NCBI GenBank assembly: GCA_009377375.1
Contig: WHUE01000002.1
Location: 33,350 to 97,349, forward strand
DNA: 64,000 bases
Source: Alphaproteobacteria bacterium
GTDB lineage: Bacteria; Pseudomonadota; Alphaproteobacteria; MPNO01; UBA2964
Direction: 5' to 3'
Part shown: positions 13,710 to 53,322 of the stretch, piece by piece
Numbering within the stretch: position 1 is the first letter of the stretch
How the letters are laid out: each line of letters begins with the position of its first letter
Notes under the pieces: model-generated
Seen by the model: only the letters and a program-made list of their open reading frames with translations
The model's database searches: none
What the model was told of the DNA's origin: nothing
Translations under genes and position numbers: made by a program

Positions 13710-14603
13710 TCAGTGCTGCAGCTCGGGCTGCTGCTCGACCGCGGCGTTGCGGATGGCCTTCTGCACCTTCTCGAAGGCGCGGACCTCGATCTGGCGCACG
13801 CGCTCGCGCGAGATGTCGTACTGCGTGCTGAGCTCTTCCAGCGTCTGCGGGCTTTCCTTCAGCCGGCGCTCGGTGAAGATGTGGCGCTCGCGCTCGTTCA
13901 GCATTTTCAGCGCCGCGCCGAGCATCTTGCGGCGGCTCGCCAGCTCCTCGCGCTCGGCCAGGATTTCCTCTTGGCTTTCCGAGTCGTCGACCAGCCAGTC
14001 CTGCCATTCGCCCTCGCCTTCCACGCGCAGCGGCGCGTTCAGCGAGTTGTCCGGCGCGGCGAGGCGGCGGTTCATCGAGATCACGTCCTCCTCCGACACG
14101 TTCAGCGCGGTGGAGATATGCTTCACGTGCTCGGGCGTCAGGTCGCCGTCCTCGATCGCCTGGATCTGCCCCTTCAGCTTGCGCAGGTTGAAGAACAGCT
14201 TCTTCTGCGCCGCCGTGGTGCCGATCTTCACCAGCGACCAGGTGTGCAGGATATATTCCTGGATCGAGGCCTTGATCCACCACATGGCGTAGGTGGCCAG
14301 CCGGAAGCCGCGGTCCGGATCGAACCGCTTGACCGCCTGCATCAGCCCGACATTGCCTTCCGAGATCAGCTCGCCCAGCGGCAGGCCGTAGCCCCGATAG
14401 CCCATCGCGATCTTCGCGACGAGCCGCAGATGGCTGGTCACCATCCGGTGCGCGGCTTCGGTGTCGCCCTCGTCGGCCCAGCGCTTGGCCAGCATGAACT
14501 CTTCCTGCGGCTCCAGGACCGGAAATTTCCGGATTTCCTGGAGGTACCGCGTCAGGTTCGTGCCGGGATCGAGAGACGGAACGGAGGGAACGTTGCTGGC
14601 CAT
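13710..14603 (-). CDS. rpoH: RNA polymerase sigma-32 factor RpoH
   Basis: Sigma-70 regions 2-4 plus an RpoH-box-like segment (QRKLFFNLRKLKG). ATG at 14603 is preceded by a GAAGGAGAAG RBS; the ORF-track start at 14645 is an upstream extension. Confidence 0.9.
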   Translation of the reverse strand: MASNVPSVPSLDPGTNLTRYLQEIRKFPVLEPQEEFMLAKRWADEGDTEAAHRMVTSHLRLVAKIAMGYRGYGLPLGELISEGNVGLMQAVKRFDPDRGFRLATYAMWWIKASIQEYILHTWSLVKIGTTAAQKKLFFNLRKLKGQIQAIEDGDLTPEHVKHISTALNVSEEDVISMNRRLAAPDNSLNAPLRVEGEGEWQDWLVDDSESQEEILAEREELASRRKMLGAALKMLNERERHIFTERRLKESPQTLEELSTQYDISRERVRQIEVRAFEKVQKAIRNAAVEQQPELQH

Positions 14604-14710
14604 TTCGTGCTTCTCCTTCGTAATTGGTCGGCAGTTGCCGCACATACACCGGCGGAGCGCCTGATGGCGCCCGGACCCCCTTCCCCCGACCTTCCTTGTG
14701 ATTGCCAGAA

Positions 14711-38055: not shown

Positions 38056-38742
38056 TCAGCGCCGGTCCGGCTTTCTCCCGGCCACGCGGTTCCATGCGCG
38101 CCTGAGGAAGGAGAGAAAGGAGCCAACGGGACCTTCGACGGGCCTGGCGGGCGCCGGACGGTGCGCGCCCTGCGGCACGCGATCGCTCGCCCCCGGTTGC
38201 GGCCGTTCGACCTGATCGGCGTGCGCATATATCGGGGCCGCGCCGTTCCCGCGATTGCGGTCTGTCCCCCGGGCCTCTGGCGCCGGGCGGGACAGCAGCT
38301 GTTCGACCAGTTCGCGCGGAAAGCTCCTCACCCCGCTTTTCGCCGACCGGACGATCTCGAGGGCCATGCCCCGATGCAGGTCCTGCAGCAGCACCGCGTC
38401 CACGCCTGGGAAATGCGTCCGGACGAGCTCTATCTCGTCCGAGGACGCGACGAGCACGACCGTGATGTCCGCAGAGAGACGCGCCCATCTCCGCCGGTGG
38501 TGCTCTGTCATGTCGGACAGGGAGCATCCGCTTATCAGCAGAACGGGATCGCCGGCGCTCGCCCCGAGAGCCCGGAAGATGTCCTGCACCCCGTCTGCCG
38601 TCCGAATCCGCCCCTGCCAGTCCGGGGCCAGCTCGGACACGATCCAACTGCGGATGGCGCCAGGTGCGACCGCCACGACCAGCAGCCTGCCGGGGGGCGT
38701 TTCGGGATCGGGCTGACGCGGGTTCGATGGTCCGGATGACAT
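38056..38742 (-). CDS. hypothetical protein with a degenerate receiver-like (CheY-fold?) core
   Basis: Alternating hydrophobic beta-strand/helix pattern (LLVVAVAPG.., VLLISGCSLSD, VVLVASSDE) without canonical phospho-acceptor residues, and a Pro/Arg-rich tail. Weak support. Confidence 0.3.
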   Translation of the reverse strand: MSSGPSNPRQPDPETPPGRLLVVAVAPGAIRSWIVSELAPDWQGRIRTADGVQDIFRALGASAGDPVLLISGCSLSDMTEHHRRRWARLSADITVVLVASSDEIELVRTHFPGVDAVLLQDLHRGMALEIVRSAKSGVRSFPRELVEQLLSRPAPEARGTDRNRGNGAAPIYAHADQVERPQPGASDRVPQGAHRPAPARPVEGPVGSFLSFLRRAWNRVAGRKPDRR

Positions 38743-39149
38743 GGCGGTCTACTGCGGGCGGGTGTCGCCTGAGCCTCTCTTGTCGCTTTTCCGGCTTGTC
38801 GCTTTTCCGGCGCATCCGGATCGGTGGCGCCGGACCGGAGCCGTGGCGTGGCGGGGCGATCAGCCGCGCGCCCGGTCCCGGATCATACCTTCGCCCGGGT
38901 CATCCGCTCCCGCCTATTATTGATTACACCCAAGGTGCTCATGTCCACCATAAATAGACGGAGTAAATAAGTGAGATTCATAAATATTCACAGGGGATTA
39001 ATCCGAATTTATGCGAGACGAGTACTAAAGGGCGCTTAGCCTGCCGCCCGTTCCCGTATACACCTGTTGCCGTAACTCTCTTCGGGGGGGGCGGGACGTC
39101 CGTCCCCCGGTTTTTCCGGCCGAGCGCCGGACCAGAAGGAGGAATTGTC

Positions 39150-39641
39150 ATGAAGTACACGTTCTTTGCCGCCGCGGCGGCACTGCTTGCGCTGGGTCCC
39201 GCGATCGAGGGGAACAGCGGACGGCTTTTCGGTGTCGGCGTTGCCTCCGCCCAGCAGATGGGAAGCCAGCCCTGGGGATTCTCGGGACGAAGCCGGAGCC
39301 TGGCCGCCCAGTTCCAGTTCCAGCGCGACCTCGTCAACGGTTCGGGTGCGGTGGACGGAATGGCGGCACTGCAGCAATACGTCACCCAGTACAACTCCAG
39401 CTCGACCTCGATCGGCAATTTGAACGAGGTGACGCAGGTTCTGTCCGGCGGGTCCACGGGCTCGGTGGGCCAGACCACCGACCAGACCTCGCAGGGCAAC
39501 CAGGGATCCTCCGCCACCACCGATACGACCGTCAACAACACCGCGGTTTCGGTCGAGGGCGGCGGTACTGCGCAGGGCACAGCCGCCCAGAACCAGACCG
39601 CCGATCAGTCGCAGAACGGCGAACAACCGGCCGCCCAGTAA
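39150..39641 (+). CDS. secreted Ser/Thr/Gln/Asn-rich low-complexity protein (hypothetical)
   Basis: Strong RBS (AGAAGGAGGAATTGTC-ATG), a signal peptide, and a T/S/Q/N-rich C-terminal half. Flanked by AT-rich DNA. Confidence 0.55.
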   Translation: MKYTFFAAAAALLALGPAIEGNSGRLFGVGVASAQQMGSQPWGFSGRSRSLAAQFQFQRDLVNGSGAVDGMAALQQYVTQYNSSSTSIGNLNEVTQVLSGGSTGSVGQTTDQTSQGNQGSSATTDTTVNNTAVSVEGGGTAQGTAAQNQTADQSQNGEQPAAQ

Positions 39642-39693: not shown

Positions 39694-40066
39694 TTGAAAA
39701 TGTCGGTATCGAGCGATGTCATGCCCGCGAGGCTGTCCGTCTCCCCAACCCGCCGAACTCAGCGGGACGCCATCCGCAGGAGGCGGACCTGCGCAGCGGT
39801 CGTTCTCGCCTTTGCAGCCGTCCTCGGCCGATCCGGCGAAGGCATTCGAGTGGTACCGCCGCGCCGCCGTCGGCGGCGAAGCAAGGGCGCAATACAATAT
39901 CGGCCTTCTGTATCTGAGCGGAAAGGGCGTGGTCGCCGATCCGGTCCAGGCCGTCAAGTGGCTGGTTCTCGCTGCCTCCACAGCGGCGGGATCCCGACAT
40001 CAGGCGAAAGGCGCAGGCCACGCTGAACGGGATTTCACCCGCGCTGAAATCCGGCGATTTCCATGA
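39694..40066 (+). pseudogene. degraded Sel1-repeat (TPR-like) protein gene, frameshifted
   Basis: A signal-peptide-like N-terminus is in frame 39694 (RRRRTCAAVVLAFAAVLG) while Sel1 repeat units are in frame 39716 (AKAFEWYRRAAVGGEARAQYNIGLLYLSGKGV..AVKWLVLAA). The repeats decay after about 1.5 units. Confidence 0.3.
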
Positions 40067-40379
40067 AGGAGCCCAGGCCGCAAGGCTCTGGCTGGTGCGC
40101 CGGCAATGGACGAGCCGCTCGGCCGGGCGGAGCGGGGGCTGAGTCCGACTGCCCGCCGGCGGATCGCCGCGTCGCGGCCGTCGACTGTTCGGGGCGACGC
40201 GGAGGAAAGCGGGCGGGACGCCGATCCGGTCCTGTCCGCGCGAGGGGCGGCGCCTGAAGACCGGGCCGGCGGCCCCGACCCATAGCCCGTCCGGCTTCGG
40301 TGCTGTCCCTCGCACGCCGCGCCGCATTGCGGGCGGCGCGGTCTTGTTCCGTTTTCCCCGTTCCGTCCGCGCGGCAAGT

Positions 40380-40959
40380 ACAACCGTTGGTGATGCCGCC
40401 TGTCCACCATTTTTATGACAGGATTTTCTTGACAATCCTGATCTTTAAGTCTGCCTATAATATATATAATAATTTTTAATAAATATATACTCGAACATTT
40501 ATGTAATAAGTCATTTTAATCGAAGCATATCATGCTGTGACACAGATTTATCACAGACAAGAACCTTCCTCCTCCCCCATATGTGACCTAATGTAAGGCG
40601 GCTCGTGACATCTCGTGACATATCGTAAGTCCGATGGGCGGTATGGCGCGACTGGCTGCGGCCTCCCCCGTCGGAAGGTCAGGCGGATCTGTAAGAAGGA
40701 TTAGTCCCGATAGAGACATTAATCATTAAGCTTAGAGGAATACCCATTTTCCGTTCTCTTTAATAATCATCTTTAAGGTTAAACAATTATTTGTAGGGAC
40801 GCGTATTTTGGCTCTGTAAGAATTTGTGGTTAATCCTTCATGCTTGGTCCAATTTTGTAATGAGGCGCAAATCGGTGGTCGGCATGTTAAGTCTGCCGAA
40901 TCACGGGGCAAGACTCGGCGAATCCGATGATTCGTAAGAGTCGTATCAGAGGGTTGATC
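40380..40959. other. about 580-bp AT-rich intergenic tract (under ~40% GC in a ~68% GC genome) upstream of the LuxR-type regulator and the polysaccharide locus
   Basis: Runs such as taatatatataataatttttaataaatatatac; contains the 10-bp tandem repeat CTCGTGACAT x2 (40602-40621) and TGTGACACAG..TATCACAGAC (40536-40559). Confidence 0.6.
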
Positions 40960-41631
40960 ATGGCTATCCAGGAAGACTGCGCGCTGCGCGCAATGATTGT
41001 AGACCATAACCGCCTGTACCGGGCCGGTCTGAAGCTGACGCTGGAATCCGCGAATGTCAGGGTGGTTGCCGAAGGAGACGATCTCAAGGCTCTCATGGCC
41101 GGCTCGGATGAGGCCGGCGGCGACATCCTGCTGCTGAAGCTGCCGAGGGCGGCCGCCGTGGCGGAGGCGCTGGGAAACGCAAGACAGGCGTTTCCCGCCG
41201 CCAAGCTGGTGGTGATTGCGGATGCCAATCTGAATTCCGATGCGATGGTGACGGCGATTCAGGCGGGCGCGGACGGCGTCCTGCTGTCCGAGCTCTCTCC
41301 GGATGTGTTCCTGCAGTCGCTGCGTCTGGTCCGTCTGGGCGAGAAGGTCCTGCCTGCGCAGCTCGCCCGGATGCTCATCGGGGGCGACGCCCGTGTCTCG
41401 CATATGCCGAGCCAGATGCGTCAGCTGGGACTGTCGGCGCGGGAGATGGAAATCCTCCGGCTTCTGGTCGACGGCAGTTCGAACAAGGGCATTGCACGAC
41501 GCCTCGACATCGCGGAGGCAACCGTGAAGGTGCATGTCAAGGCCGTGCTGCGGAAGATCCAGGTGACGAACAGGACTCAGGCCGCGGTCTGGGCGCTCAA
41601 CCACGGGGTGGCCTGCGAGCAGGAGGCCTGA
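40960..41631 (+). CDS. LuxR/FixJ/NarL-family response regulator (receiver plus C-terminal LuxR HTH)
   Basis: C-terminal LuxR-type HTH (LSAREMEILRLLVDGSSNKGIARRLDIAEATVKVHVKAVLRKI) and an N-terminal receiver-like domain with an atypical acidic pocket. ATG at 40960 after a GAGGG RBS. Confidence 0.75.
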   Translation: MAIQEDCALRAMIVDHNRLYRAGLKLTLESANVRVVAEGDDLKALMAGSDEAGGDILLLKLPRAAAVAEALGNARQAFPAAKLVVIADANLNSDAMVTAIQAGADGVLLSELSPDVFLQSLRLVRLGEKVLPAQLARMLIGGDARVSHMPSQMRQLGLSAREMEILRLLVDGSSNKGIARRLDIAEATVKVHVKAVLRKIQVTNRTQAAVWALNHGVACEQEA

Positions 41632-41901
41632 GCGAATGGCCAGCGTTGCATGTCGTAGCGCGGGCGCGGCGATGTCTGACGCCGCGCGCCATACACGCCG
41701 GCCGGGGATGTCGCTCCGGCCGGCAGTGCGCTGTGACTGCCTCCCCGCCGGGGTCTGGGACGTCGCCCGCGTGCCGGAACCGCGTCGCCGCCGCCCCGAT
41801 ATGTTCTCAGAATGGTCACAGCCGCCATCGGCGCGCGCGGCTAGTGTTTGCGCCGACCGCCGCTCTTTCCCGTCGGGCACTCAAACACCGCGAAGGCGCA
41901 G

Positions 41902-43239
41902 ATGATCATCGTCGACACCGCACTGAATGACCTGGAAGCGAACGGAACGCCTGTCCGGGTGGGCCTGGTGGGGCCGGGCTTCATGGGATATGCCATCGCG
42001 CGGCAACTCATCCTTTATGCGAAGGGCATACGCCTTGCCGCCGTCTCCAGCCGGGATCCGGCAAGGGCGGCGAAGGCCTTCACCGATGCCGGCGTCGCGC
42101 ACCCCCGGTTCGCCGACGACCTGGCCGGCTTTTCGGAGGCCGTACGTTGCGGCATTCCCGTGTTCACGAGCAACTGGCGCCTGCTGTGCGAGAGCGACGA
42201 GATCGATGTCGTGATCGATGTGACGGGCGCGGTGGAATTCGGCGCCCACCTCGCCCTGGCCGCCATCGAACACGGCAAGCATCTGATTCTGAGCAACGCG
42301 GAGCTCGACGGCACAGTGGGGGCCCTGCTGAAGCGCAGGGGCGAGGAGGCCGGGGCGATCGTCACGACCTGCGACGGCGATCAGCCGGGCGTCCAGATGA
42401 ACCTGTACCGGTTCGTGCGCGGCATGGGCATCCGGCCGGTGCTCTGCGGCAACATCAAGGGGCTGCAGGATCGCTACCGCAACCCGACGACCCAGATTCC
42501 CTTTGCAAAAAAATGGGGCCAGAAGCCGGAAATGGTGTCCGCCTTCGCCGACGGCACGAAAATCTCCTTCGAGCAGGCACTGGTCGCCAACGCGACCGGC
42601 ATGACCGTGGCACGGCGCGGGATGACGGGCGCCAGCTTTGAGCTCGGCACCCCGCTGGAGGAAGCGATCGCGTCACTGCCCCTCGAGCGTGCGGCAGAAG
42701 GCACGGGTTTCGTGGATTACATTGTCGGGGCGTCGCCGTTGCCGGCTGTGTTCGTCGTCGGCACGACCGACGACCCCGTCCAGCAGCACTATCTGCGGCT
42801 TTACAAGCTGGGGGACGGCCCCTTTTACCTCTACTACACGCCGTACCACCTGTGCCACTTCGAGATGCCCAACACGGTCGGGCGCGTCATGCTGTTCGGC
42901 GACACGGTGGGCGCACCGATTTCCGGGCTCATGGTCGAGGTGGTCACGGCGGCGAAGACCGATCTGCGGGCAGGCGTCACGCTGGACGGCATGGGGCAGT
43001 ACATGACTTACGGCACCTGCGAGAACGCCGACGTCGCGCGGCAGGAAAACCTGTTGCCGATCGGCGTCGCCGAAGGATGCCGTCTGACCCGCGACGTGAG
43101 GCGGGACGAAGCCCTCACCTATGACGATGTCGAACTTCCTCCGGGCCGCCTGATCGACAGGCTTCGCCGCGAGCAGGATGACCTGTTTTGCGACCGCGCG
43201 CCCGCGGCGGAACGGCGGGAGAGCCAGGCCGTCGTCTGA
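41902..43239 (+). CDS. NAD(P)-binding oxidoreductase with C-terminal SAF domain (COG4091 'homoserine dehydrogenase-like' family)
   Basis: N-terminal Rossmann motif (VRVGLVGPGFMGYAIARQL) and Gfo/Idh/HSDH-like architecture. First structural gene after the regulator. Confidence 0.55.
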   Translation: MIIVDTALNDLEANGTPVRVGLVGPGFMGYAIARQLILYAKGIRLAAVSSRDPARAAKAFTDAGVAHPRFADDLAGFSEAVRCGIPVFTSNWRLLCESDEIDVVIDVTGAVEFGAHLALAAIEHGKHLILSNAELDGTVGALLKRRGEEAGAIVTTCDGDQPGVQMNLYRFVRGMGIRPVLCGNIKGLQDRYRNPTTQIPFAKKWGQKPEMVSAFADGTKISFEQALVANATGMTVARRGMTGASFELGTPLEEAIASLPLERAAEGTGFVDYIVGASPLPAVFVVGTTDDPVQQHYLRLYKLGDGPFYLYYTPYHLCHFEMPNTVGRVMLFGDTVGAPISGLMVEVVTAAKTDLRAGVTLDGMGQYMTYGTCENADVARQENLLPIGVAEGCRLTRDVRRDEALTYDDVELPPGRLIDRLRREQDDLFCDRAPAAERRESQAVV

Positions 43240-43250
43240 CGCGACATCCG

Positions 43251-44264
43251 TTACCGGTCATCCCAGATGTAGCGCCCGCGCTCGTGCCAATGGAGCCGCG
43301 TGCGAACGTGCTTGACGGCGAGAAGCGGACGCAGCACGGCGCGTTCCAGCTCTCCCATCGCGGCGCGCGCCAGATCGCCTGCGCCGGGCAGGCGGCCGAC
43401 CTGCCGCAGGGCGTTCACGTGAAAGTCGAAAAGCTGCCGCTCGCGCAGCAGGATCGCGCTGCGGATCAGGAACCGATAGTACCGACGCAGGAACCCCGCC
43501 TCGATCGCGGAGAGCTCGTCGGGCGCCAGGTAACGCGGGCCGAATTCGTGCAGCATGAGCAGGCTGTCCCGGAATTGCGTGCCCTTGCGGTCCGCCACGG
43601 TCGACGTCACCGAATCCTCATGCTCGCGGGAGAACATCAGCATCTCGTGGGCGAAGCCGAAATCCACGCGATCCAGCACGTCGAAGAACCCGGCTATGTC
43701 GGCGTGCAGGTAGCGATCGGGATAGAACGGCTTCGCGGGGTCGATCAGGTCGCGGCGGATCAGGCTGCCGGTCGGCGAAAACGCGAAGACTTCCTCCCGA
43801 AGAAACAGGCGCACGATCTCGCGGCCGCTGAAAACTTCCTGGTCCGGAGTCAGGCCGGCGCACTGGATCCGGCCCCCGCGCAGGCGCAGCGAGGCGACGA
43901 TTCCGACCGTCGGGTTCTGCTGTGCGATCGTCACCATTCGCGTCAGGCTGTCGCCTATCAGGGCGTCGTCCGCCGGCAGAACCCAGACGAACCTGCTCTC
44001 GTCGGAGATAAATCCGAGGGCCCGGTTCCAGTTTGCAACGACCGGCAGGTGATCCGTGCATTCCACGAGGCGTATGCGGGGACAGCGTGCGGCGTAGCCG
44101 GCGATAATGGCGCGCGTATCGTCGGTGCTCGCATTGTCCACGAAAACATGTTCGAAGCATGGATACTGCTGCGCCATCACGCTTTCAATGCATTCAGCAA
44201 GATAGCGACCGCCGTTGTAGACCGGCGTTACAATACTCACAAAGGGTAGATTCTGATTATCCAT
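43251..44264 (-). CDS. family-2 glycosyltransferase (GT-A fold)
   Basis: VSIVTPVYNGGRYLAECIESV.., DxD-like VDNASTDDT, and an acceptor-side ..PADD.. region. ATG at 44264 with an AGGGAGG RBS. Confidence 0.8.
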   Translation of the reverse strand: MDNQNLPFVSIVTPVYNGGRYLAECIESVMAQQYPCFEHVFVDNASTDDTRAIIAGYAARCPRIRLVECTDHLPVVANWNRALGFISDESRFVWVLPADDALIGDSLTRMVTIAQQNPTVGIVASLRLRGGRIQCAGLTPDQEVFSGREIVRLFLREEVFAFSPTGSLIRRDLIDPAKPFYPDRYLHADIAGFFDVLDRVDFGFAHEMLMFSREHEDSVTSTVADRKGTQFRDSLLMLHEFGPRYLAPDELSAIEAGFLRRYYRFLIRSAILLRERQLFDFHVNALRQVGRLPGAGDLARAAMGELERAVLRPLLAVKHVRTRLHWHERGRYIWDDR

Positions 44265-44347
44265 GGAACAGATCCCGCTGCCTCCCTTTAGTCGCAATCT
44301 AGGAGGTAGTCGATTTTAAGCTCCGGGCCAACCGGAATCCACGTGGC

Positions 44348-44453
44348 CCCTGAATGCTCACAGCAGATCACAGTTCGGCCACGGGTCCTTTCCGGACACC
44401 GCGCAGACCCTGAACGCTCACAGCTATCACAGTATGGCCACGGGCGCCTGTCG
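44348..44453 (+). promoter_or_regulatory. two about 46-bp imperfect direct repeats, each with paired (C)TCACAG elements, in the divergent GT2/rfbF promoter region
   Basis: cctgaatgCTCACAGcagaTCACAGttcggccacgggtcctttccgg (44348-44395) and cctgaacgCTCACAGctaTCACAGtatggccacgggcgcctgtcgg (44408-44453), spaced about 60 bp apart. Confidence 0.5.
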
Positions 44454-44626
44454 GCAAAATCCGATATCTACCTCTGACGAAAGCGCAACCGAATGTAACA
44501 CGCCATGTACGCACCGGGAGACGCATCACCAGATGGGAAGGGTCCGCACATGAAGGGAGTCGGCCGGCAGAAAAAGAATGTTTACGTGTTGATCAGAGGG
44601 CGAGCGCATCAAGGCGGAGCGGTGAC

Positions 44627-45400
44627 ATGAAAGTCGTGATCCTTGCGGGCGGCTATGGAACCCGCATCAGCGAAGAAACCACGGTGAAGCCGAAGCCGCT
44701 TGTTGAGATCGGCGGACGGCCTATTCTCTGGCACATCATGAAGATCTATTCGGCCTACGGCCTGACCGACTTCATCATATGCGGCGGATACAAGTGCTCG
44801 ATGATCAAGTCCTATTTCCGGGATTATGCGCTGGACTCCTCGGATGTGGAGTTCGACTACGCCAACGGGACGATGAACTTCCTCCGGCGCGAGGTCGAGC
44901 CGTGGCGGATCACCGTGATCGACACCGGCGAACACACCATGACCGGCGGGCGGATAAAGCGGATCCTGGATCGCGTCGACGACGACACGTTCTGCCTGAC
45001 CTACGGCGACGGAGTTTCCAACGTCGATATCCGCGACCTCATTCGCTATCACAAGGAGTCGGGGGCGCTGGCGACGCTGACGGCGGTGCAGCAGCCGGGC
45101 CGCTTCGGCGCCCTCGCGCTCGAACCGGACGACCGGCTCGTCCGCGCGTTCCGCGAGAAATCGAACGCCGACGGCGGCCTCATCAACGGCGGCTACTTCG
45201 TCGTCGACCGCGGGGTGGACGATTACATCGACGGAGACGACACCGTCTGGGAGCAGGAGCCGATGCAGTCGATGGCGCGCGACGGCATGCTCGCCGCGTA
45301 CCGCCATCTGGGCTTCTGGCAGAACATGGACACGCTGCGCGACAAGATGGTTCTCGAGAACCTCTGGCAGGAGAGTCCCCCGTGGAAGATCTGGCAATAA
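44627..45400 (+). CDS. rfbF: glucose-1-phosphate cytidylyltransferase (CDP-glucose pyrophosphorylase)
   Basis: [45 protein letters not shown] is a near-canonical RfbF/DdhA N-terminus. 257 aa. Confidence 0.9.
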
Positions 45401-45494
45401 CGCACGCCCGCGCCCCCGGCGCCGGCCGGGAGTCCTGCCTGGGCGTCGCGAAGCCCCGGCCCCTCCCATTGTCTGAACGGATTGAGAGACTGTC

Positions 45495-46787
45495 ATGGAT
45501 GCTGTCATGAATGTCGCCGCAAGCCCTGCAACCGAAGCGCAGCCCGATACCGGCCCGGGGCGTCCGCCCTGCCGGCTCTGCGGCGCGGCGCTGCACCGGA
45601 CATTCGTGGATCTGGGCGCCCAGCCGTCCGCCAACGCCTATCTGACCGCCAACCGGCTTTCGGGGATGGAGCCGACCTGGCCGCTGCACGCCTATGTCTG
45701 CGACGAGTGCCATCTGGTCCAGCTCGAGGCCCTGCACAACTCGGAGGAACTCTTCGCCGATTACGCCTATTTTTCCTCCTACGCGGATTCATGGCTCCGT
45801 CATGCGGAGATATACGCGGAACGGATGCTGGAGCGGTTCGCCCCGGACCGGCCGGAACTCGTGGTCGAGATCGCGAGCAACGACGGCTATCTCCTGCAGT
45901 ATTTCGTGCGCGAGGGCATCCCCGTGCTGGGGATCGATCCCGCAGCGAACGTGGCCGCCGCGGCCGAGGCGCGCGGCATACCCACCCTGGTCCGCTTTTT
46001 CGGACGCAAGCTGGCGACGGAGCTGGCGACGGGCGGGCGGTTCGCGGATCTGATCGTCGCCAACAACGTGCTGGCGCATGTCCCCGACATCAACGATTTC
46101 GCCGCTGGGTTCGCGCCGATCCTGCGGCCGCAGGGAATGGTGACGGTGGAGTTTCCCCATCTGCTCAGGCTGATCCAGGGCAACCAGTTCGACACGATCT
46201 ATCACGAGCATTTCTCCTATCTGTCGCTCGGCGTCGTGGAACGGCTGTTCGCAGCCCACGGGCTCGTCGTGTTCGATGTCGAGGAGCTGTCCACCCACGG
46301 CGGCTCGCTGAGAGTGTTCGCGGCGCGGCGCGATTCGGACCACGTCGTGTCGGAACGGGTCGCCGCCGTGCACGCGGACGAGGCCGCGGCGGGCATGGAC
46401 GGGCCGGAGGTCTACGACGCCTTCGCGGCGCGCGCGGCCCGCCTCAAGCGCGACCTGGTGCGGACCCTGATGGACCTGCGGGACGCCGGCAAGACGGTCG
46501 CCGCCTACGGCGCCCCGGCCAAGGGCAACACGCTCCTGAACTACTGCGGCATCGGCACCGACCTGGTGAAATTCACCGTCGACCGCAGCCCGCACAAGCA
46601 GGGGCGCTGGCTGCCCGGCAGCCGCATCCCGGTCTTCGAGCCTGAGCGGCTGCGCCAGGAGCGGCCGGACTACGTCCTGATCCTGCCCTGGAACCTGAAG
46701 TCGGAGATCATGATGGGCTGCGGTTTCATCCGCGAATGGGGCGGCAAGTTCATCGTGCCGATCCCCGCGGTCACGATCGTCCCATGA
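45495..46787 (+). CDS. NDP-hexose C-methyltransferase-family protein (zinc-ribbon, Methyltransf_13 and C-terminal C-MT domains; TylCIII/EryBIII-like)
   Basis: N-terminal CxxC..CxxC (CRLCGAAL..CDECHLV), a Rossmann MTase core (VVEIASNDGYLL), and a C-terminal C-methyltransferase-like domain. ATGA overlap with the downstream gene. Confidence 0.7.
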   Translation: MDAVMNVAASPATEAQPDTGPGRPPCRLCGAALHRTFVDLGAQPSANAYLTANRLSGMEPTWPLHAYVCDECHLVQLEALHNSEELFADYAYFSSYADSWLRHAEIYAERMLERFAPDRPELVVEIASNDGYLLQYFVREGIPVLGIDPAANVAAAAEARGIPTLVRFFGRKLATELATGGRFADLIVANNVLAHVPDINDFAAGFAPILRPQGMVTVEFPHLLRLIQGNQFDTIYHEHFSYLSLGVVERLFAAHGLVVFDVEELSTHGGSLRVFAARRDSDHVVSERVAAVHADEAAAGMDGPEVYDAFAARAARLKRDLVRTLMDLRDAGKTVAAYGAPAKGNTLLNYCGIGTDLVKFTVDRSPHKQGRWLPGSRIPVFEPERLRQERPDYVLILPWNLKSEIMMGCGFIREWGGKFIVPIPAVTIVP

Positions 46788-47353: not shown

Positions 47354-48808
47354 TCAGCGCGCCGCGGCCATCGTCTTGATCGTGCTCAGCGCGAAACGCT
47401 GAAGCGTCGGGCTCAGAATCCGGATCGCGATCCAGTAGACCAGCATCCCGACGGCGACGTCGAGCGAGAGCGCCGCCAACGCGCCGACCTTGCCGGAAAG
47501 CCACCGATCCGCGCCGAACACTGCTGCCCCCATGATCAGGCTGGCCGCCGCCGGCACATAGACGGGCTGCAGTAGCCAGGCGGCTCCGACGCCGAGCAGG
47601 CGGCGCAGAAGGAGCACGTGGACGGGCATCCAGGCAAAGGCCTTGCACACCCAGAACGCCGCCACCCAGACCACCGGCTCATGACGGAGCGCCAGGATGC
47701 CGGCGATCGTCAGCACGAGGTCCACGGCCATGAGGTACAGCACCCAGTCCGCGCGGCCCTTCGCGCGGTAGCACGCCGTGAAGAACATGGCGAAGAAGAC
47801 CGGGATGAAGTGCAGCGCGAGCCAGGCGAGGATCGGGACGCTCGCGGCCCACTTTGCGCCGTAAAACGCGACGATCAGGTGAGGCGCCACCAGGGCGAGG
47901 CCGATGCCGAGGGGGAGGCCGACCAGGCAGCTGAGCTGCGTGGCCTGCAGAAAGCTCGACCGCAGCGCCTCGCTGTTGTCCTGCAGGCGGGAGAACATGC
48001 TGAACCCGACCTGGTAGAGCGCGCTCGCGATCAGGGACCGCAGAAGCTGCATGGTCCGCCAGGCGATGTTGAAATAGCCGAGCACGACCGGCCCGTACAG
48101 AATGCCGAGCATCAGGTTGACCGCCTGCTCGGCGATGCCGGAGATCAGCTGGCCGGCCGAGACATGCAGGCCGAACCCGGCCATCGAACGAAAGCACGAC
48201 GTCGAGAAGCGAAGGCGCGGCATCCACCGGTACACCAGCGCCAGCGCGGCGTTCGTCGTCACCGCCGCGGCCAGCTGCTGTCCCACGAGGCTCCATGCGC
48301 CGCCGCCCAGAGCCGCCATCGTCAGCCCCACGACGGCGCCCGCCGTGCGGCCGACCAATGTCGCTCCCGCGACGTCGCGGAACCGGAGGTCGCGCCGAAG
48401 CATCGCCGTCTGCACGCTGCCCATCGCATTCAACGGCAGGATCAGGGCAAGCCAGTGCAGAATATCGGTGACCGCCGGCTCGCCTGTGATTCGGGCGATC
48501 GTGCCCGCGCCCGATGCCGTGGCGGCGGCCAGGAGAAGGGCGATGGCCAGCGTGCTCCAGAACGCGGTGTGGACATGATCGGGGCCGATCTCCCGCGCTT
48601 GCACCAAGGCGTCGGGAAAGCCATGGCCGATGACCAGGTTGAGCATCAGCACGACGGCGCCGGCCATGGCGACGATGCCGAAATCGACCGGCTCCAGGAG
48701 CCGGGCCATTCCGAGAAACGCGATCAGCGAGATGACGGCCGCGCCGGTACTCTCCGAAAGCGCCCAGAAGACGCTCCCCAGGCTGCGGTGTTTCAGACTT
48801 TCAGCCAT
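47354..48808 (-). CDS. wzx: polysaccharide/O-antigen flippase Wzx (MOP/PST superfamily)
   Basis: 484 aa with about 12-14 TM helices, typical of the Wzx/PST 'polysaccharide biosynthesis protein' family. Confidence 0.75.
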   Translation of the reverse strand: MAESLKHRSLGSVFWALSESTGAAVISLIAFLGMARLLEPVDFGIVAMAGAVVLMLNLVIGHGFPDALVQAREIGPDHVHTAFWSTLAIALLLAAATASGAGTIARITGEPAVTDILHWLALILPLNAMGSVQTAMLRRDLRFRDVAGATLVGRTAGAVVGLTMAALGGGAWSLVGQQLAAAVTTNAALALVYRWMPRLRFSTSCFRSMAGFGLHVSAGQLISGIAEQAVNLMLGILYGPVVLGYFNIAWRTMQLLRSLIASALYQVGFSMFSRLQDNSEALRSSFLQATQLSCLVGLPLGIGLALVAPHLIVAFYGAKWAASVPILAWLALHFIPVFFAMFFTACYRAKGRADWVLYLMAVDLVLTIAGILALRHEPVVWVAAFWVCKAFAWMPVHVLLLRRLLGVGAAWLLQPVYVPAAASLIMGAAVFGADRWLSGKVGALAALSLDVAVGMLVYWIAIRILSPTLQRFALSTIKTMAAAR

Positions 48809-48920
48809 CCCTGGCCGGACCCTTGTGGACGCCGGGCGTCATGGCCGGCCGCTGCCTATTCATAACCTGAACTGCCTCAAAAAAGAGTAATGAATTTAGG
48901 CATTTAATACCTATGCCCGG

Positions 48921-48960
48921 GTCACAACGTAGTCACATAGGATCACAACGTAGTCACATG
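48921..48960 (+). promoter_or_regulatory. four TCACA elements at 10-11 bp phasing (2x tandem 20-bp unit) in the divergent wzx/maoC promoter
   Basis: gGTCACAacgtaGTCACAtaggaTCACAacgtaGTCACAtgg, preceded by AT-rich aaaaaagagtaatgaatttaggcatttaatac. Confidence 0.5.
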
Positions 48961-48983
48961 GAAGTTTCTGTGAAACCGGTACC

Positions 48984-49439
48984 ATGTCTCCATATCTACC
49001 GCGTCCAGTATACGGTGGAGCAGAGATGGGTATCGACGGACAGAAAGCTATTGCGGAATTCCGGATTACGCACGCGGAAATGGATGTCTTCCGCGCGCTG
49101 AGCGGAGACACCAATCCGATTCATGATGAATCCGACTATCCGCGCCGGCACGGGTTCGACGGCGCGGTGGTCTACGGCGGACTCCTGGTCGCGCAGATTT
49201 CGCGCTTCCTGGGCACCCGGCTGCCCGGGCCCGGCTGCGTCGAGCGGTCGATCACGCTGCGATACCGCGCCCCGCTCTATGTCGGTGAGCCGGCGCGTCT
49301 GATTGTCGAGGTTGTTCACGCGAACGAGGGGCTCGGGCTGGTCGACATGAAGCTCCGGATCGAATCCGGTTCACGCCGCATCGCGGAAGGCGAGGCGGCC
49401 GCGATGCTGGCCCGCGAGCGCGTCCTTGTGGAGGCATGA
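48984..49439 (+). CDS. MaoC-like (R)-specific hot-dog dehydratase
   Basis: MaoC dehydratase motifs (FRALSGDTNPIHDESDY.., GAVVYGGLLVAQISRFLG). An alternative ATG at 49026 has a better RBS (GGTGGAG). Confidence 0.7.
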   Translation: MSPYLPRPVYGGAEMGIDGQKAIAEFRITHAEMDVFRALSGDTNPIHDESDYPRRHGFDGAVVYGGLLVAQISRFLGTRLPGPGCVERSITLRYRAPLYVGEPARLIVEVVHANEGLGLVDMKLRIESGSRRIAEGEAAAMLARERVLVEA

Positions 49440-49475
49440 CCGGAACGGTCGCGTCTTCTCCGTAATCTGAATCGA

Positions 49476-51419
49476 ATGAGGCCCTGCGAAATGAGTGGCT
49501 CGCATTCCCCCTGCTCCCTCCACTGGCTGCCCCCGGCGGATCGCTTCGCGGCGCGGGTGGCGGAACTCCGCGACCGGACGGATGACGATCCGGAGCAGCG
49601 CTTCGCCGCGCTGCGCGCGGTCGCTGACCACCGGCTCGACTTTCTTGAAACCCGGCGCCTCGACCGCTTGCTCGAGGAGACGGCGGACACGGTGCCCGCC
49701 GACGTTCCGCGTCTCCGGTTGTCGCTGCTGGGCAGCGCGACGCTCGACCACCTGGTTCCGGCAATCCGCGTAGCGGCACTCCGGCGGGGCCTGGTCGTCG
49801 ATGTCGATGTCACGCCCTTCGGGCAGTGGCGCCAGCAGATACTGGACCCGGAATCCGCCCTCTACGCGTTCGAGCCCGGCTGCGTCCTCCTCGCGCCCGA
49901 CCTGTCGGCCCTCCTGTCCGAGCTGCCGCTGGACGCCACGGCCGCAGAGGCCGCGCTGGCGGTGGACGAGGCCGTCGACGATCTGGCGCAGCTCTGGCGC
50001 ATGGTCCGGGACCGGACCGGCGCCGCCATCCTGCAGGAGACGCCGTGGCTCGACGCACCGCCCCTTTACGGACATTTCGAACGGCACGTGCCGGGCTCGC
50101 CGGGCGCGGTCGCCCGCCGGCTGGACCGCGCACTGGACGAGGCGGCCGCCAAGGAAGGCGTGCTGCTGCTCGACCTGCGCAGCGCCGTCTACGGGATCGG
50201 CGCGCACCACGTTTCCGACAGCGCGTTGTGGCATCACGCGAAACAGGCGGTGTCTCCCCTCGCGGCGCCCTGGGTCGGCGATCACATCGCGCGAATCCTC
50301 GCCGCCATTCGCGGGCTGTCGAAGAAGGTCCTGGTGCTCGATCTCGACAACACGCTGTGGGGCGGCGTGATCGGGGACGACGGCCTGGACGGCATCGTCG
50401 TCGGTCAGGGCTCCGCCGCAGGCGAAGCCTTCGCCGCCTTTCAGCGCTACCTGAAGCGGCTCGGCGGGCGCGGCGTGGTGCTCGCGGTCAGCTCCAAGAA
50501 CGACCGGGCGGTCGCGCGCGCGGCGTTCACCGACCATCCCGAGATGGTGCTGCGGATCGACGACTTCGCATCCTTCGAGGCGGACTGGAACGACAAGCCG
50601 GCCGCGCTGCGGCGGATAGCGGAGGAGCTTTCGCTCGGCCTGGACTCGTTCGTCTTCGTGGACGACAACCCGGCGGAGCGGGCGCTCATGCGGCAGATCC
50701 TGCCGCAGGTCGCCGTCCCCGAGCTGCCGGAAGCGCCGGAGCTTTATGTCCGGTGCCTCGCCGATGCGGGGTATTTCGAGGCGGTCTCCTTCACCGCGGA
50801 AGACACCAGGCGGAACGCACAGTACGTGGCGAACCGGGAGCGGCGCGAGCTGGAGTCCTCGACGCAGGACATCGAGAGCTTCCTGCGCGACCTCCGGATG
50901 ACGCTGCAGGTCTCTCCCTTCCGTTCCGCGGACGTGCCCCGGATCACGCAGCTCATCAACAAGACCAACCAGTTCAACATGACGACGCGGCGCTATACCG
51001 AGGCCGAGGTGCGGGGCTTCATGCAGGATCCGAAGGTGCTCACCTTCGCCGCTCGCCTCAGCGATCGCTTCGGCGACAACGGGCTGACGAGCGTCGTCAT
51101 CTGCAGGCCATCCGACGACGGCCGCACGGAAGCGGGGCTGGAAATCGACACCTGGCTGATGAGCTGCCGCATTCTCGGCCGCCGCATCGAGCAGGCCATG
51201 CTGGCGGTGGTGGCGGAGAAGGCGTCGGAAGCGGGGGCGGACGTGCTGCTTGGCCGCTACCGTCCCACCAAGAAGAACGGCCTGGTGAAGGAGCTCTACC
51301 GGAACCTGGGCTTCGAGCTCCGCGAGATCAACAACCGGACCGGCGAGTCGACCTGGGCGTTTCCCCTCTCGATGCCGGCCCGTCCCGCCACGGATCATCT
51401 CCAACTGCAATACGAGTGA
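49476..51419 (+). CDS. FkbH-like / HAD-IIIC family protein (glyceryl-ACP-forming type) with about 280-aa N-terminal extension
   Basis: HAD-IIIC core (KVLVLDLDNTLWGGVIGDDG..VLAVSSKND..FVFVDDNPAE) typical of FkbH-like enzymes that load a glycerate-derived unit onto a carrier protein. 647 aa. Confidence 0.7.
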   Translation: MRPCEMSGSHSPCSLHWLPPADRFAARVAELRDRTDDDPEQRFAALRAVADHRLDFLETRRLDRLLEETADTVPADVPRLRLSLLGSATLDHLVPAIRVAALRRGLVVDVDVTPFGQWRQQILDPESALYAFEPGCVLLAPDLSALLSELPLDATAAEAALAVDEAVDDLAQLWRMVRDRTGAAILQETPWLDAPPLYGHFERHVPGSPGAVARRLDRALDEAAAKEGVLLLDLRSAVYGIGAHHVSDSALWHHAKQAVSPLAAPWVGDHIARILAAIRGLSKKVLVLDLDNTLWGGVIGDDGLDGIVVGQGSAAGEAFAAFQRYLKRLGGRGVVLAVSSKNDRAVARAAFTDHPEMVLRIDDFASFEADWNDKPAALRRIAEELSLGLDSFVFVDDNPAERALMRQILPQVAVPELPEAPELYVRCLADAGYFEAVSFTAEDTRRNAQYVANRERRELESSTQDIESFLRDLRMTLQVSPFRSADVPRITQLINKTNQFNMTTRRYTEAEVRGFMQDPKVLTFAARLSDRFGDNGLTSVVICRPSDDGRTEAGLEIDTWLMSCRILGRRIEQAMLAVVAEKASEAGADVLLGRYRPTKKNGLVKELYRNLGFELREINNRTGESTWAFPLSMPARPATDHLQLQYE

Positions 51420-51427
51420 GGATTCCC

Positions 51428-51676
51428 ATGGACGTTCCAGACATCCAGGCCAGTCTCGCAGAGATCATACGCGATGTTCTCGACGACCCCGACTTCGAGG
51501 TCACGCCGGAAACGTCCGCGGCCGATCATTCCGACTGGGATTCCTTCAGCCACATTTCGATCATCGTCGCGGCCGAGATGCGGTTCGGCATCAAGTTCCA
51601 GACCGCCGAGATCGAGAGCGCCTGCAATGTCGGAGACTTCGCCGCCCTGATTGCCCGGAAGTGCCAGGCGGCCTGA
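51428..51676 (+). CDS. acyl/peptidyl carrier protein (phosphopantetheine attachment site)
   Basis: 82 aa, acidic, with a DSxS-type attachment motif (DHSDWDSFSHISIIVAAE). RBS GAGGAT. Lies directly between the FkbH-like and MBOAT genes. Confidence 0.7.
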   Translation: MDVPDIQASLAEIIRDVLDDPDFEVTPETSAADHSDWDSFSHISIIVAAEMRFGIKFQTAEIESACNVGDFAALIARKCQAA

Positions 51677-51699
51677 GCCGGTAAAGGCGGGCCCGCAAG

Positions 51700-53322
51700 A
51701 TGCTCTTCAACGCCCCGGAGTTTCTCGTCGGTTTCCTTCCCGTCACGCTGATCGGCTTCTTCGCCATCGGCGCGTTCGGACGACCTTATCTCGCCATCCT
51801 CTGGCTGGTTGCCGCGTCGCTGTTCTTCTACGGCTGGTGGCGGCCCGAATTCGTGCTTCTGATCCTCGGCTCCGCGAGCTTCAACTACCTGGTCGGGCTC
51901 CGGCTCGGCCGGACGCCGAGCAGGAGCCTGCTGACCTTCGGCATCGCCGGCAATCTCGTCCTGTTGGGCTGGTTCAAGTATTCCGGCTTTCTGGCGGAGC
52001 TGATGAACGACCTTTCGGGCGCCGGTCTGCCGATCCCGTCGGTGGTGCTGCCGCTGGGAATTTCCTTCTATACCTTCCAGCAGATCGCCTACCTCGTGGA
52101 CGCCCATTCCGGCGACGCCCACGAAAAGAGCTTCGCCCATTACGCGCTGTTCGTGACGTTCTTTCCGCAGCTGATCGCGGGTCCCATCGTGCACCACCGC
52201 GAGATGCTGTCGCAGTTCCATCTGCCGGAAACGTACCGGCCGAAGCTGTCCAACCTGATCCTCGGCCTCGCTACGTTCTCGATCGGGCTGTTCAAGAAGG
52301 TGTTTATCGCCGATCCGCTCGGGGGGCAGGCGCAGCTGGCCTTCGGGCCGGCGGCGGAGGGCATCGTGCCGATGTTCGCCGATGCCTGGTTCGGCACGCT
52401 GGCCTACACGCTGCAACTCTACTTCGATTTCTCCGGTTACTCGGACATGGCCGTCGGGCTTGGCCTCATGTTCGGCATCCGGCTTCCCCTCAACTTCGCC
52501 TCGTCCTTCAAGTCGGGCAGCATCATCGAGTTCTGGTCGCGCTGGCACATGACGCTGACGCGGTTCCTGACCGCCTACATCTACAATCCTGTCGTCGTGG
52601 CGATCACGCGGCGCCGTGTGGCCGCCGGCAAGCCGGTCCTGCGCCAGAAGCGTCCGGAGGCGGTGCCGTTCGCGGTCCAGCTCGCGTTCCCGACGCTGCT
52701 CACCATGGGCCTCGCCGGGATCTGGCACGGCGCGGGCTGGCAGTTCCTCGTCTTCGGGCTGTTTCACGGCATGCTGCTGGTCATCAACCATGGCTGGCGC
52801 GCACTCCGTCGCGTTTACGGCGTCGACCGGAAATTCGGGCGCCCGGGGCAGATCGCGGCCGTGCTCGTGACGTTCCTGTCGGTGACCGTCAGCTTCGTCT
52901 TCTTCCGCTCGGACAGCCTCGAACACGCGCTGCTGATCGTGCAGGCCATGGCAGGGTTCGGCGGAGAGTTCCGGGGCATCCCCTCCGCGACCGGACCAGA
53001 TCTCGCGGCCATGGGCGGATCCGAGATGCTGCTCTGGCGCTTTACCACCTTGCCGGGGATTCTCGTGATCGCCGGCCTGGCCATCGTGTGGACGCTGCCC
53101 AACACCGCCCAGATCATCGAACGCATCGCCGCCGGGGCGGAGCGGCCGACGGAGGCCGCCCGGCGCGTGATCCGCTGGCCGCTGCTGCGCTGGGACATGC
53201 CGGTCCGGCTTCCGTTCGAGAATCGCTTTCTGCAGGGGTCTTGCGTCGGCGCCCTGCTCGCCCTGGCCCTGCTCCGGGTTCTTTCCGCTGCGCCCACCGA
53301 GTTCCTTTACTTTACCTTCTAG
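51700..53322 (+). CDS. MBOAT-family membrane-bound O-acyltransferase (AlgI/DltB-like)
   Basis: 540 aa, polytopic, with conserved MBOAT His region (..WSRWHMTLTRFL.. and GIWHGAGWQFL). Confidence 0.85.
   Translation: MLFNAPEFLVGFLPVTLIGFFAIGAFGRPYLAILWLVAASLFFYGWWRPEFVLLILGSASFNYLVGLRLGRTPSRSLLTFGIAGNLVLLGWFKYSGFLAELMNDLSGAGLPIPSVVLPLGISFYTFQQIAYLVDAHSGDAHEKSFAHYALFVTFFPQLIAGPIVHHREMLSQFHLPETYRPKLSNLILGLATFSIGLFKKVFIADPLGGQAQLAFGPAAEGIVPMFADAWFGTLAYTLQLYFDFSGYSDMAVGLGLMFGIRLPLNFASSFKSGSIIEFWSRWHMTLTRFLTAYIYNPVVVAITRRRVAAGKPVLRQKRPEAVPFAVQLAFPTLLTMGLAGIWHGAGWQFLVFGLFHGMLLVINHGWRALRRVYGVDRKFGRPGQIAAVLVTFLSVTVSFVFFRSDSLEHALLIVQAMAGFGGEFRGIPSATGPDLAAMGGSEMLLWRFTTLPGILVIAGLAIVWTLPNTAQIIERIAAGAERPTEAARRVIRWPLLRWDMPVRLPFENRFLQGSCVGALLALALLRVLSAAPTEFLYFTF

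Follow-up and report, generated by a model that had tools for sequence, protein, structure and literature searches.

In the 64,000-nucleotide stretch of the alphaproteobacterial contig WHUE01000002.1 (GCA_009377375.1) analyzed here (i.e., the window; GC content ~69%), the short word TCACA recurs as phased direct repeats 5' of the genes of a polysaccharide locus, and this cis-element is real and almost certainly functional. It is very probably a transcription-factor operator. We tentatively read the TCACA(G/A/T) elements as half-sites of one factor for the polysaccharide locus, with which a winged-helix regulator of the OmpR/PhoB family encoded outside the window would be most compatible. In the proposed organization, two to four half-sites would be arranged head-to-tail, one per helical turn and mostly 11 bp apart, and would read toward the downstream gene at four promoters (i.e., those of a regulator gene, an oxidoreductase gene, the rfbF operon and the maoC-fkbH-ACP-MBOAT operon), with a fifth promoter possibly in the set. 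A preliminary description of this DNA had proposed recurrence in at least three promoters and a shared cis-regulatory signal for the locus; the number of promoters is four, possibly five, all with sites co-oriented with downstream + strand genes, and the proposal of a shared signal is well founded in this recurrence and in selective conservation. The sites are as follows.

40540-40556, + strand: direct repeat ACACAG-N5-TCACAG with an 11-bp period, bordering an AT-rich tract ~410 bp 5' of the regulator gene
41805-41821, + strand: direct repeat TCTCAG-N5-TCACAG with an 11-bp period, 5' of the DRL-type oxidoreductase gene
44357-44373, + strand: CTCACAG-N4-TCACAG in unit A of the GT2/rfbF divergent region, half-site spacing 10 bp
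44417-44432, + strand: CTCACAG-N3-TCACAG in unit B of the same region, half-site spacing 9 bp
48922-48926, 48933-48937, 48943-48947 and 48954-48958, + strand: four TCACA half-sites between wzx and maoC, spacing 11/10/11
38978-38993, + strand: candidate fifth site TCATAA-N4-TCACAG, in an AT-rich tract 5' of the + strand gene at 39150, found in the relaxed scan only

The presence of phased TCACA repeats, as first described, was borne out by their counts and by the retention of the half-sites in relatives. The window contained five strict pairs (i.e., TCACA-N4-7-TCACA), compared to 0.12 expected (0/100 shuffles), and the expectation was the same 0.12 in 1000 composition-local shuffles. All five lay on the + strand and were split between the intergenic regions at 44.4 kb and 48.9 kb; the chance of at least one strict pair in a single one of these regions was ~0.0015 in the composition-local shuffles. 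Phased pairs with one mismatch numbered 13, compared to 3.2 expected, and 11 of the 13 were within 38.9-49 kb. The strict and relaxed pairs were all same-strand direct repeats, and the sites were all on the + strand and 5' of + strand genes, including three cases without a divergent gene (i.e., upstream of the regulator gene, upstream of the oxidoreductase gene and in the related contig L095). TCACAG was found in 8 of the 12 half-sites and TCACAGC in three. Single words were not enriched in the window: TCACAG occurred 16 times vs. 16.6 expected, TCACA was under-represented (37 vs. 54) and GTCACA was not enriched. In 1.25 Mb of 80 unrelated FkbH loci, which came from an FkbH scan of genome contigs and are useful only as background, there were 3 strict and 32 relaxed pairs. 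It should be noted that the tandem duplications (21 bp ×2 and 60 bp ×2) inflate the raw pair count, and that the independent events amount to about two strict plus two relaxed sites.

Close relatives are known only from short metagenomic contigs. L081 and L082 encode a regulator that is 93% identical, with synteny running from the regulator gene to wzx; L084 encodes an 85% identical regulator and has this gene and the next in common with the window. The wzx/maoC region is covered by L086 and L092, whose MaoC proteins are 92 and 96% identical, respectively. The identity of MaoC is 81% in L093 and L094 and 75% in L095, where an epimerase gene lies immediately 5' of maoC and wzx is missing, i.e., the upstream gene is different. 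L085 carries a 71% regulator orthologue, and L090 and L091 a 52% homologue; L087 includes only 325 bp upstream of its regulator orthologue and thus falls short of the expected motif position. When the relatives were pooled, 1 of 68 motif columns varied, vs. 440 of the 1263 aligned columns outside the motif (Fisher p = 2e-11). The oxidoreductase site was recognized partly via conservation; without it the contrast is still extreme (1/56 vs. 362/1054).

These results bear on whether the repeats reflect nothing but neutral tandem duplication (21 bp ×2, 60 bp ×2) and chance, with no regulatory role, which we consider very improbable. Both regions with strict matches are internal tandem duplications that inflate the counts, the hexamer TCACAG alone is not enriched in the window, and L093 and L094 manage without the motif, all as expected of a neutral origin; yet the same word is found at four separate promoters in one orientation, its half-sites are invariant while spacers and flanks change, it survives in L095 and L090 amid DNA that cannot be aligned, and its distance to a conserved −10-like hexamer is constant at 26 bp.

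The wzx/maoC array (48921-48960, GGTCACAACGTAGTCACATAGGATCACAACGTAGTCACATGG) consists of two 21-bp units, GTCACAAcgtaGTCACATagg and aTCACAAcgtaGTCACATgg (48919-48938 and 48940-48959), that are 95% identical. The four TCACA elements between these genes had been described correctly, while their spacing and the length of the unit, given as 11/10/10 and 20 bp, are corrected here to 11/10/11 and 21 bp. In L086 and L092, all four TCACA pentamers are unchanged and every substitution lies in the spacers, where four positions differ (TCACAACGTAG to TCACACCCTAG or TCACAGGGTAG; TAGG to TCGG). L095 contains ACACAG-CCTAC-TCACAA-GGTAG-TCACAT-GGAAG, i.e., three half-sites with an 11-bp period, in intergenic DNA the rest of which is unalignable. 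Three further features follow the array.

48968-48974, − strand: fifth element, CTGTGAA, in inverted orientation (− strand reading TTCACAG), 10 bp past the last direct half-site
48980-48985, + strand: putative −10-like hexamer TACCAT of the maoC promoter, 26 bp from the start of the last TCACA
48992-49000, + strand: 9-mer ATATCTACC of the maoC promoter

The inverted element is kept in L086 and L092, with substitutions on either flank, and is not found in L095. TACCAT is unchanged in L086 and L092, and a four-way alignment pairs it with TAGAAT of L095, which also lies at +26. The rfbF promoter contains an identical 9-mer, and the distance to the last TCACA is 37 bp there and 38 bp in the maoC promoter; variants of the 9-mer are ATATTTAC in L086 and L092 and ATATCAACC in L081. 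The 9-mer is a probable transcription-start region, although it may instead be a second operator. The ATG at 48984, which was earlier taken as the maoC start, falls inside TACCAT. Given that a 20-bp indel in L086 disrupts the reading frame from this ATG and that the homologue P0121 has 137 aa, the real maoC start is most likely the ATG at 49026, which is preceded by the ribosome-binding site GGTGGAG and opens a frame of 137 aa. An exact look-up of the 151-aa MaoC that would start at 48984 returned no match because the true protein, on this reading, has 137 aa.

The GT2/rfbF divergent region contains two tandem units with a 60/59-bp period (unit A, 44332-44391; unit B, 44392-44451). The preliminary description had noticed two repeats with CTCACAG/TCACAG pairs here, which we confirm; the repeats are longer than the ~46 bp reported, and the gaps within the pairs are N4 and N3 rather than N4/5. 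A degenerate third half-site, GCCACGG, is found 11 bp further on in both units. Both units are present in L081 and L082, where one TCACAG of unit A is changed to TCACAA and unit B is identical; L081 is too close (90%) for conservation in the rfbF region to be informative. The rfbF promoter fits the geometry of the maoC promoter less well, with CAAAAT at +28. The 9-mer shared with the maoC promoter lies 3' of unit B.

44464-44472, + strand: 9-mer ATATCTACC of the rfbF promoter

Upstream of the regulator gene, TGTGACACAG-N5-TCACAG (40536-40556) reads cTGTGACACAG-ATTTA-TCACAG. A pair had been reported at this place with a gap of N6; the gap is N5, and the conserved part is the direct repeat ACACAG-N5-TCACAG, unlike the TGTGA arm of an inverted reading, which is not conserved. 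The direct repeat is unchanged in L081, L083 and L084 within DNA that is ~50% variable (0/12 motif columns vary, vs. 270/538 others), and the block GACACAGnTTTATCACAGA at this site is invariant as far as L084. A −35-like CAGACA (40554-40559) overlaps the half-site and is 17 bp before CCATAT (40577-40582). Two other features with − strand readings lie just downstream.

40582-40596, − strand: conserved block TGTGACCTAATGTAA, which reads TTACAT-N4-TCACA on the − strand with a 10-bp period and is kept in L081 and L084
40602-40626, − strand: 10-bp tandem repeat CTCGTGACAT ×2.5, which reads ATGTCACGAG on the − strand with TGTCAC at a 10-bp period

The copy number of CTCGTGACAT varies, with one copy in L081 and L083 and a diverged sequence in L084. 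The region 5' of the regulator gene (40436-40959) is unusually long (~520 bp) and has a GC content of 42%, compared to 69% for the genome. If transcription starts near 40589, as we infer, the 5' leader would be ~370 nt. The last 125 nt of this leader are kept to the 85% orthologue and can form hairpins, of which only two pairs show compensatory changes.

At the oxidoreductase gene, GTCACAG (41815) is conserved and has a previously unnoticed partner, TCTCAG, 11 bp upstream. A CTGTGAC...GTCACAG pair had been proposed here, of which only the GTCACAG arm stands, since CTGTGAC (41731) sits in a stretch that is missing from the relatives. The block CCCCGATATGTTCTCAGAATGGTCACAG, which is upstream of the oxidoreductase gene, is 100% conserved in L081 and L084, while its flanks are 37% variable.

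41842-41847, + strand: TAGTGT, conserved in three sequences, starting 26 bp after TCACAG of the oxidoreductase site

The same offset recurs between promoters. A TAnnAT hexamer follows the start of the last half-site by 26 bp in the maoC promoter of both the window (TACCAT) and L095 (TAGAAT), and CCATAT, CAATTT or CAGATT is found at +26 at the regulator site of the window and its relatives. This 26-bp offset suggests an activator site overlapping the −35 region. If these hexamers are −10 elements, the proximal half-site would span approximately −38 to −33 and the pair would be centered near −41, where class II activators bind and where PhoB-type boxes take the place of a poor −35. Because the promoter-proximal half-site, starting ~26 bp before the −10-like hexamer, would overlap a weak or absent −35 region, the bound protein would most likely activate by contact with RNA polymerase, as PhoB does at pho boxes; the additional upstream half-sites would allow cooperative, oligomeric binding. 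Reading TCACAG itself as a −35 hexamer was rejected, since 20 bp is too long a spacer between it and the −10-like hexamer.

What kind of protein would bind such sites? Direct repeats of 6-7-bp half-sites, one per helical turn, are the rule for winged-helix regulators of the OmpR/PhoB type (PMC4832192; PMC4415409). The preliminary description called direct repeats on one face of the helix typical of NarL/FixJ/LuxR- or OmpR-type response regulators, a premise that is wrong for the NarL/LuxR type, which normally uses inverted repeats; direct repeats are the hallmark of the OmpR/PhoB type. The half-sites identified in this study are head-to-tail, and the direct reading is kept where the inverted reading is not. 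Their spacing is 10-11 bp at maoC (11/10/11), the regulator (11), the oxidoreductase (11) and L095 (11/11), with rfbF (10 and 9) as a partial exception. A winged-helix regulator would occupy them as dimers or tetramers in tandem, head-to-tail order and would also control the adjacent gene for the NarL-type regulator.

Among the closest known systems are those of PhoP and CenR. The consensus of Mycobacterium tuberculosis PhoP is TCACAGC-N4-TCACAGC, to which a tandem dimer binds, and tri- and tetra-repeats are bound tighter (PMC4832192). The sites of the window share with the PhoP operator the word TCACAG, the direct repeats, the 11-bp period (at the regulator, the oxidoreductase and most maoC junctions) and the occurrence of promoters with three or four tandem motifs. 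In the 7-bp framing, the PhoP-type 4-bp spacer is found at the regulator, the oxidoreductase and two of the three maoC junctions, while the rfbF spacers of 3 and 2 bp are poorly tolerated by M. tuberculosis PhoP. In contrast, the last base of the maoC half-sites is A or T and not G, the host is an alphaproteobacterium and not an actinobacterium, and no PhoP-like gene is found in the window. In alphaproteobacteria, CenR recognizes direct repeats of the form T[G/C]AC-N7-TGA, which point in the direction of transcription and lie at envelope genes such as exoP (PMC9275681). The operator of Rhodobacter sphaeroides CenR (TGA-N8-TGA) is likewise an 11-bp, co-oriented direct repeat near the −35 region in an alphaproteobacterial OmpR-family system, many of the listed CenR sites begin with TCAC, and exoP among the CenR targets offers a further likeness. 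Unlike the sites of the window, however, the CenR consensus is of low information, its second half is usually GTGA rather than TCACA, and activating CenR sites are just 5' of the −35 without overlapping it (PMC9275681); no cenR gene is found in the window. The published motifs of ChvI (GCC-N8-GCC and TTGC-N3-GCAA; PMC9731502) do not match.

Several observations weigh against an OmpR/PhoB-type binder. No gene of this type is found in the 64-kb window by tblastn with PhoB and OmpR or by Pfam on the called open reading frames (ORFs). Spacing of 10 and 9 bp, as at rfbF, costs M. tuberculosis PhoP ~20-fold in affinity (PMC4832192), and L093 and L094 have no motif at maoC. We also infer, rather than observe, the −10 elements, the transcription starts, activation over repression and the identity and family of the binder, the −10 elements and starts being read from sequence alone. 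Furthermore, the motif is confined to a locus beside a regulator of another kind, which is the usual signature of a pathway-specific, autoregulated system, and a 52% homologue of the adjacent regulator likewise has the motif upstream.

The last two points lead to the adjacent NarL/LuxR-type pseudo-response regulator (40960-41631) as the binder. In this case, the protein, which lacks the phospho-acceptor Asp, would autoregulate from ~410 bp upstream and switch on the neighboring operons; how active it is would depend on its abundance, on a ligand or on a partner protein. It would need to line up head-to-tail along direct repeats, an unusual mode in its family. We regard this as possible but doubtful. 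The regulator gene is inside the set of sites, which surround it and are all within 8.5 kb of it, and its product is the only transcription factor encoded in the window besides a sigma-70-family protein (13710-14645), according to Pfam on the called ORFs and tblastn. The window, L081, L083, L084, L090 and L091 all have the motif upstream of the regulator gene, at an equivalent place ~410-460 bp upstream, at a boundary of GC-rich and AT-rich DNA, for the 93 and 85% orthologues and the 52% homologue, which also lacks the Asp. The sequence is GTCACAAAACTGTCACAC in L090; the repeat of L090 and L091, GTCACA-N5-GTCACA (GGTCACAAAACTGTCACAC), lies ~460 bp upstream on the same strand, and the chance of such a pair is ~0.0014 per 600 bp. 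None of the 80 FkbH loci encodes this regulator, and none has a phased pair beside maoC/fkbH, with three isolated pairs in the 1.25 Mb. The recognition helix is identical across the regulator homologues. MalT provides an example of a LuxR-type helix-turn-helix (HTH) protein that can use directly repeated asymmetric boxes.

The family to which this regulator belongs nevertheless argues the other way. Complexes of NarL with DNA are formed on inverted heptamers, and dimers of GerE-type HTH proteins normally bind inverted repeats, while the arrays of the window are direct repeats without conserved dyad symmetry. The sole inverted reading, CTGTGA-N10-TCACAG (40535-40556), loses its left arm in L084. 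The recognition helix TVKVHVK is that of NarL, the closest solved homologue; despite this shared helix, the NarL heptamer TACYYMT is not enriched in the window (9 vs. 7.4 expected) and does not form a 7-2-7 pair. The sites resemble NarL/LuxR operators in the family and helix of the adjacent regulator and differ from NarL 7-2-7 heptamers and lux-type boxes, which are dyad-symmetric. LuxR and TraR use the class II position, with the site centered near −41, as would be the case here. L085, whose 71% orthologue has the identical helix, contains only a degenerate GTCACG-N6-TTCACC at the equivalent place, and cousins with the Asp and the same helix (Azospirillum canadense and others) have no motif within 20 kb and a different gene context.

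By its residues, the adjacent protein is not a canonical two-component response regulator, for its phospho-acceptor Asp and conserved Lys are replaced. Alignment with NarL revealed the receiver changes D59 to K, K109 to S, D13 to V and S87 to A, and the Response_reg score of 25.4 is below the cutoff of 30.2. The orthologues P0002 to P0010 likewise lack the Asp, a loss seen down to 52% identity; the L087 orthologue is nevertheless followed by a gene for a PAS-HisKA histidine kinase. In L090 (8524-10804), the gene for the regulator homologue is divergent to a Crp/Fnr-type gene heading an unrelated polysaccharide export and biosynthesis operon (Poly_export, Bac_transf, WecG and Wzz), from which it follows that the regulator clade recurs beside different polysaccharide loci. 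The adjacent LuxR-family regulator had been called the obvious candidate for the binder. Given its receiver without the Asp and the inverted repeats used by its family, the protein is a live candidate of limited likelihood, not the obvious one. It is equally doubtful, though conceivable, that in this clade of uncultured Rhodospirillales-like alphaproteobacteria an Asp-less NarL/LuxR-type regulator combines a GerE-type HTH with an OmpR-like architecture on TCACA direct repeats, is autoregulated from ~400 bp upstream and acts as the master switch of an acyl-modified polysaccharide locus.

Within the OmpR/PhoB family, PhoB itself deserves separate consideration. The arrays might be divergent PHO boxes under phosphate-starvation control, like the exopolysaccharide II (EPS II) genes of Sinorhizobium meliloti, although we find this improbable. 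PHO boxes are built of 11-nt direct repeat units (PMC4415409), and PhoB-dependent PHO boxes are documented in the S. meliloti EPS II operons (PMC3131613), so that control of an alphaproteobacterial exopolysaccharide operon has precedent. TCACA corresponds to positions 4-8 of the extended PHO half-site CTGTCAYA, and the 11-bp period, the orientation, the tandem boxes (CTGTCAT-N4-CTGTCAT) and the putative replacement of a poor −35 are the same (PMC4415409; PMC3131613). The window is rich in phosphorus-metabolism genes (phnGHI and those for a phosphonate-binding protein, GDPD and phosphoenolpyruvate mutase) and contains a canonical PHO box, CTGTCAC-ATTC-GCGTCAC (1727-1744), 5' of the phnGHI (C-P lyase) operon and ~10 bp before a −10-like TTGATT. 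This phnG box serves as an in-window reference for the PhoB sites of this organism, and GTCAC, as in its second half, is found in 4 of the 12 half-sites. However, the PHO core TGTCA is found in none of the 12; conservation falls further 3', on TCACA plus G and not on TG, and the spacers (CGTAG, GGTAG, AGGA, CAGA and CTA) are not A/T-rich. The proximal half-site ends ~21-22 bp before the putative −10 (TACCAT or TAGTGT), vs. ~10 bp for the PHO box, so that the array is more distant from the −10 than the phnG box is, by about one helical turn. Elsewhere in the window, a 12-bp tandem duplication, CTGTCATGGATG / CTGTCATGAATG (45490-45513), lies across the start codon(s) of the methyltransferase gene and gives rise to two PHO-half-site-like CTGTCAT words with a 12-bp period. 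TGTCA-N5-7-TGTCA was observed twice in the window, vs. 0.07 expected.

The small remaining likelihood belongs to a binder from another family of transcription factors. A CRP/FNR-type site was rejected, as TGTGA-N6-TCACA is missing and, of the N10 inverted pairs, that at 40535 is not conserved and that at 48954/48969 is conserved in near relatives only; tblastn found no CRP homologue encoded in the window. Comparison of the sequence with the respective consensus also led to rejection of alphaproteobacterial LexA (GTTC-N7-GTTC), the DnaA box (TTATNCACA), LytTR 9-mer pairs, sigma-54 and −35/−10 readings for extracytoplasmic function (ECF) sigma factors. GGA motifs of CsrA are not conserved in L086 and L092, and an Rfam scan of 38.5-49.5 kb identified no RNA family.

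The genes associated with these sites, whose functions were assigned by Pfam and NCBIfam, are listed below.

40960-41631, + strand: NarL/LuxR-type regulator (Pfam: GerE at 8e-22, Response_reg under the cutoff; best match in NCBIfam and PDB: NarL)
~41848-43239, + strand: DRL-type oxidoreductase
43251-44266, − strand: GT2 glycosyltransferase
44627-45400, + strand: rfbF, glucose-1-phosphate cytidylyltransferase
Between rfbF and wzx, both + strand: methyltransferase, then sugar 3,5-epimerase
47354-48808, − strand: wzx-type flippase
49026-49439, + strand: maoC-like dehydratase of 137 aa (Pfam MaoC_dehydratas), first gene of the maoC-fkbH-ACP-MBOAT unit
49476-51419, + strand: FkbH-like protein
~51431-51676, + strand: ACP-like ORF of 82 aa, hidden inside the tail of a spurious long ORF
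51700-53322, + strand: MBOAT acyltransferase

The cassette of maoC-like dehydratase, FkbH-like protein, ACP-like ORF and MBOAT (49026-53322), which suggests acyl or glyceryl modification of the polysaccharide, is kept in L092, L093 and L095. The best relatives of FkbH come from metagenome-assembled genomes of Ferrovibrio, Rhodospirillaceae and Thalassobaculum (63% identity), and a search of a plasmid collection with the locus returned distant gene-level matches only. In L081 and L085, the regulator gene is preceded by a Sel1-repeat gene (352-353 aa), of which the window retains only a frameshifted C-terminal remnant (39824-40142); the window also lacks the CsgG-like gene and the 362-aa gene found in L085. 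Further upstream, a perfect 16-bp tandem repeat, CTTGTCGCTTTTCCGG ×2.1, is found at 38779-38811 between the − strand gene at 38056-38742 and the + strand gene at 39150, and is followed by a second AT-rich tract (38900-39010).

Overall, the finding is an ordinary kind of control element in a new instance, in an undescribed organism, and is moderately surprising. It would be more than routine only if the NarL-type neighbor, which is incompetent for phosphorylation, binds tandem direct repeats, an unusual mode for its family; otherwise, the sites are well-supported, ordinary direct-repeat operators of an activator of the response-regulator type. The motif provides a concrete operator sequence with which the regulator can be fished out. 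If confirmed, the sites would define a small regulon in an uncultured alphaproteobacterial lineage, in which the regulator gene is joined by three or four operons for the synthesis and probable acylation of a surface polysaccharide.

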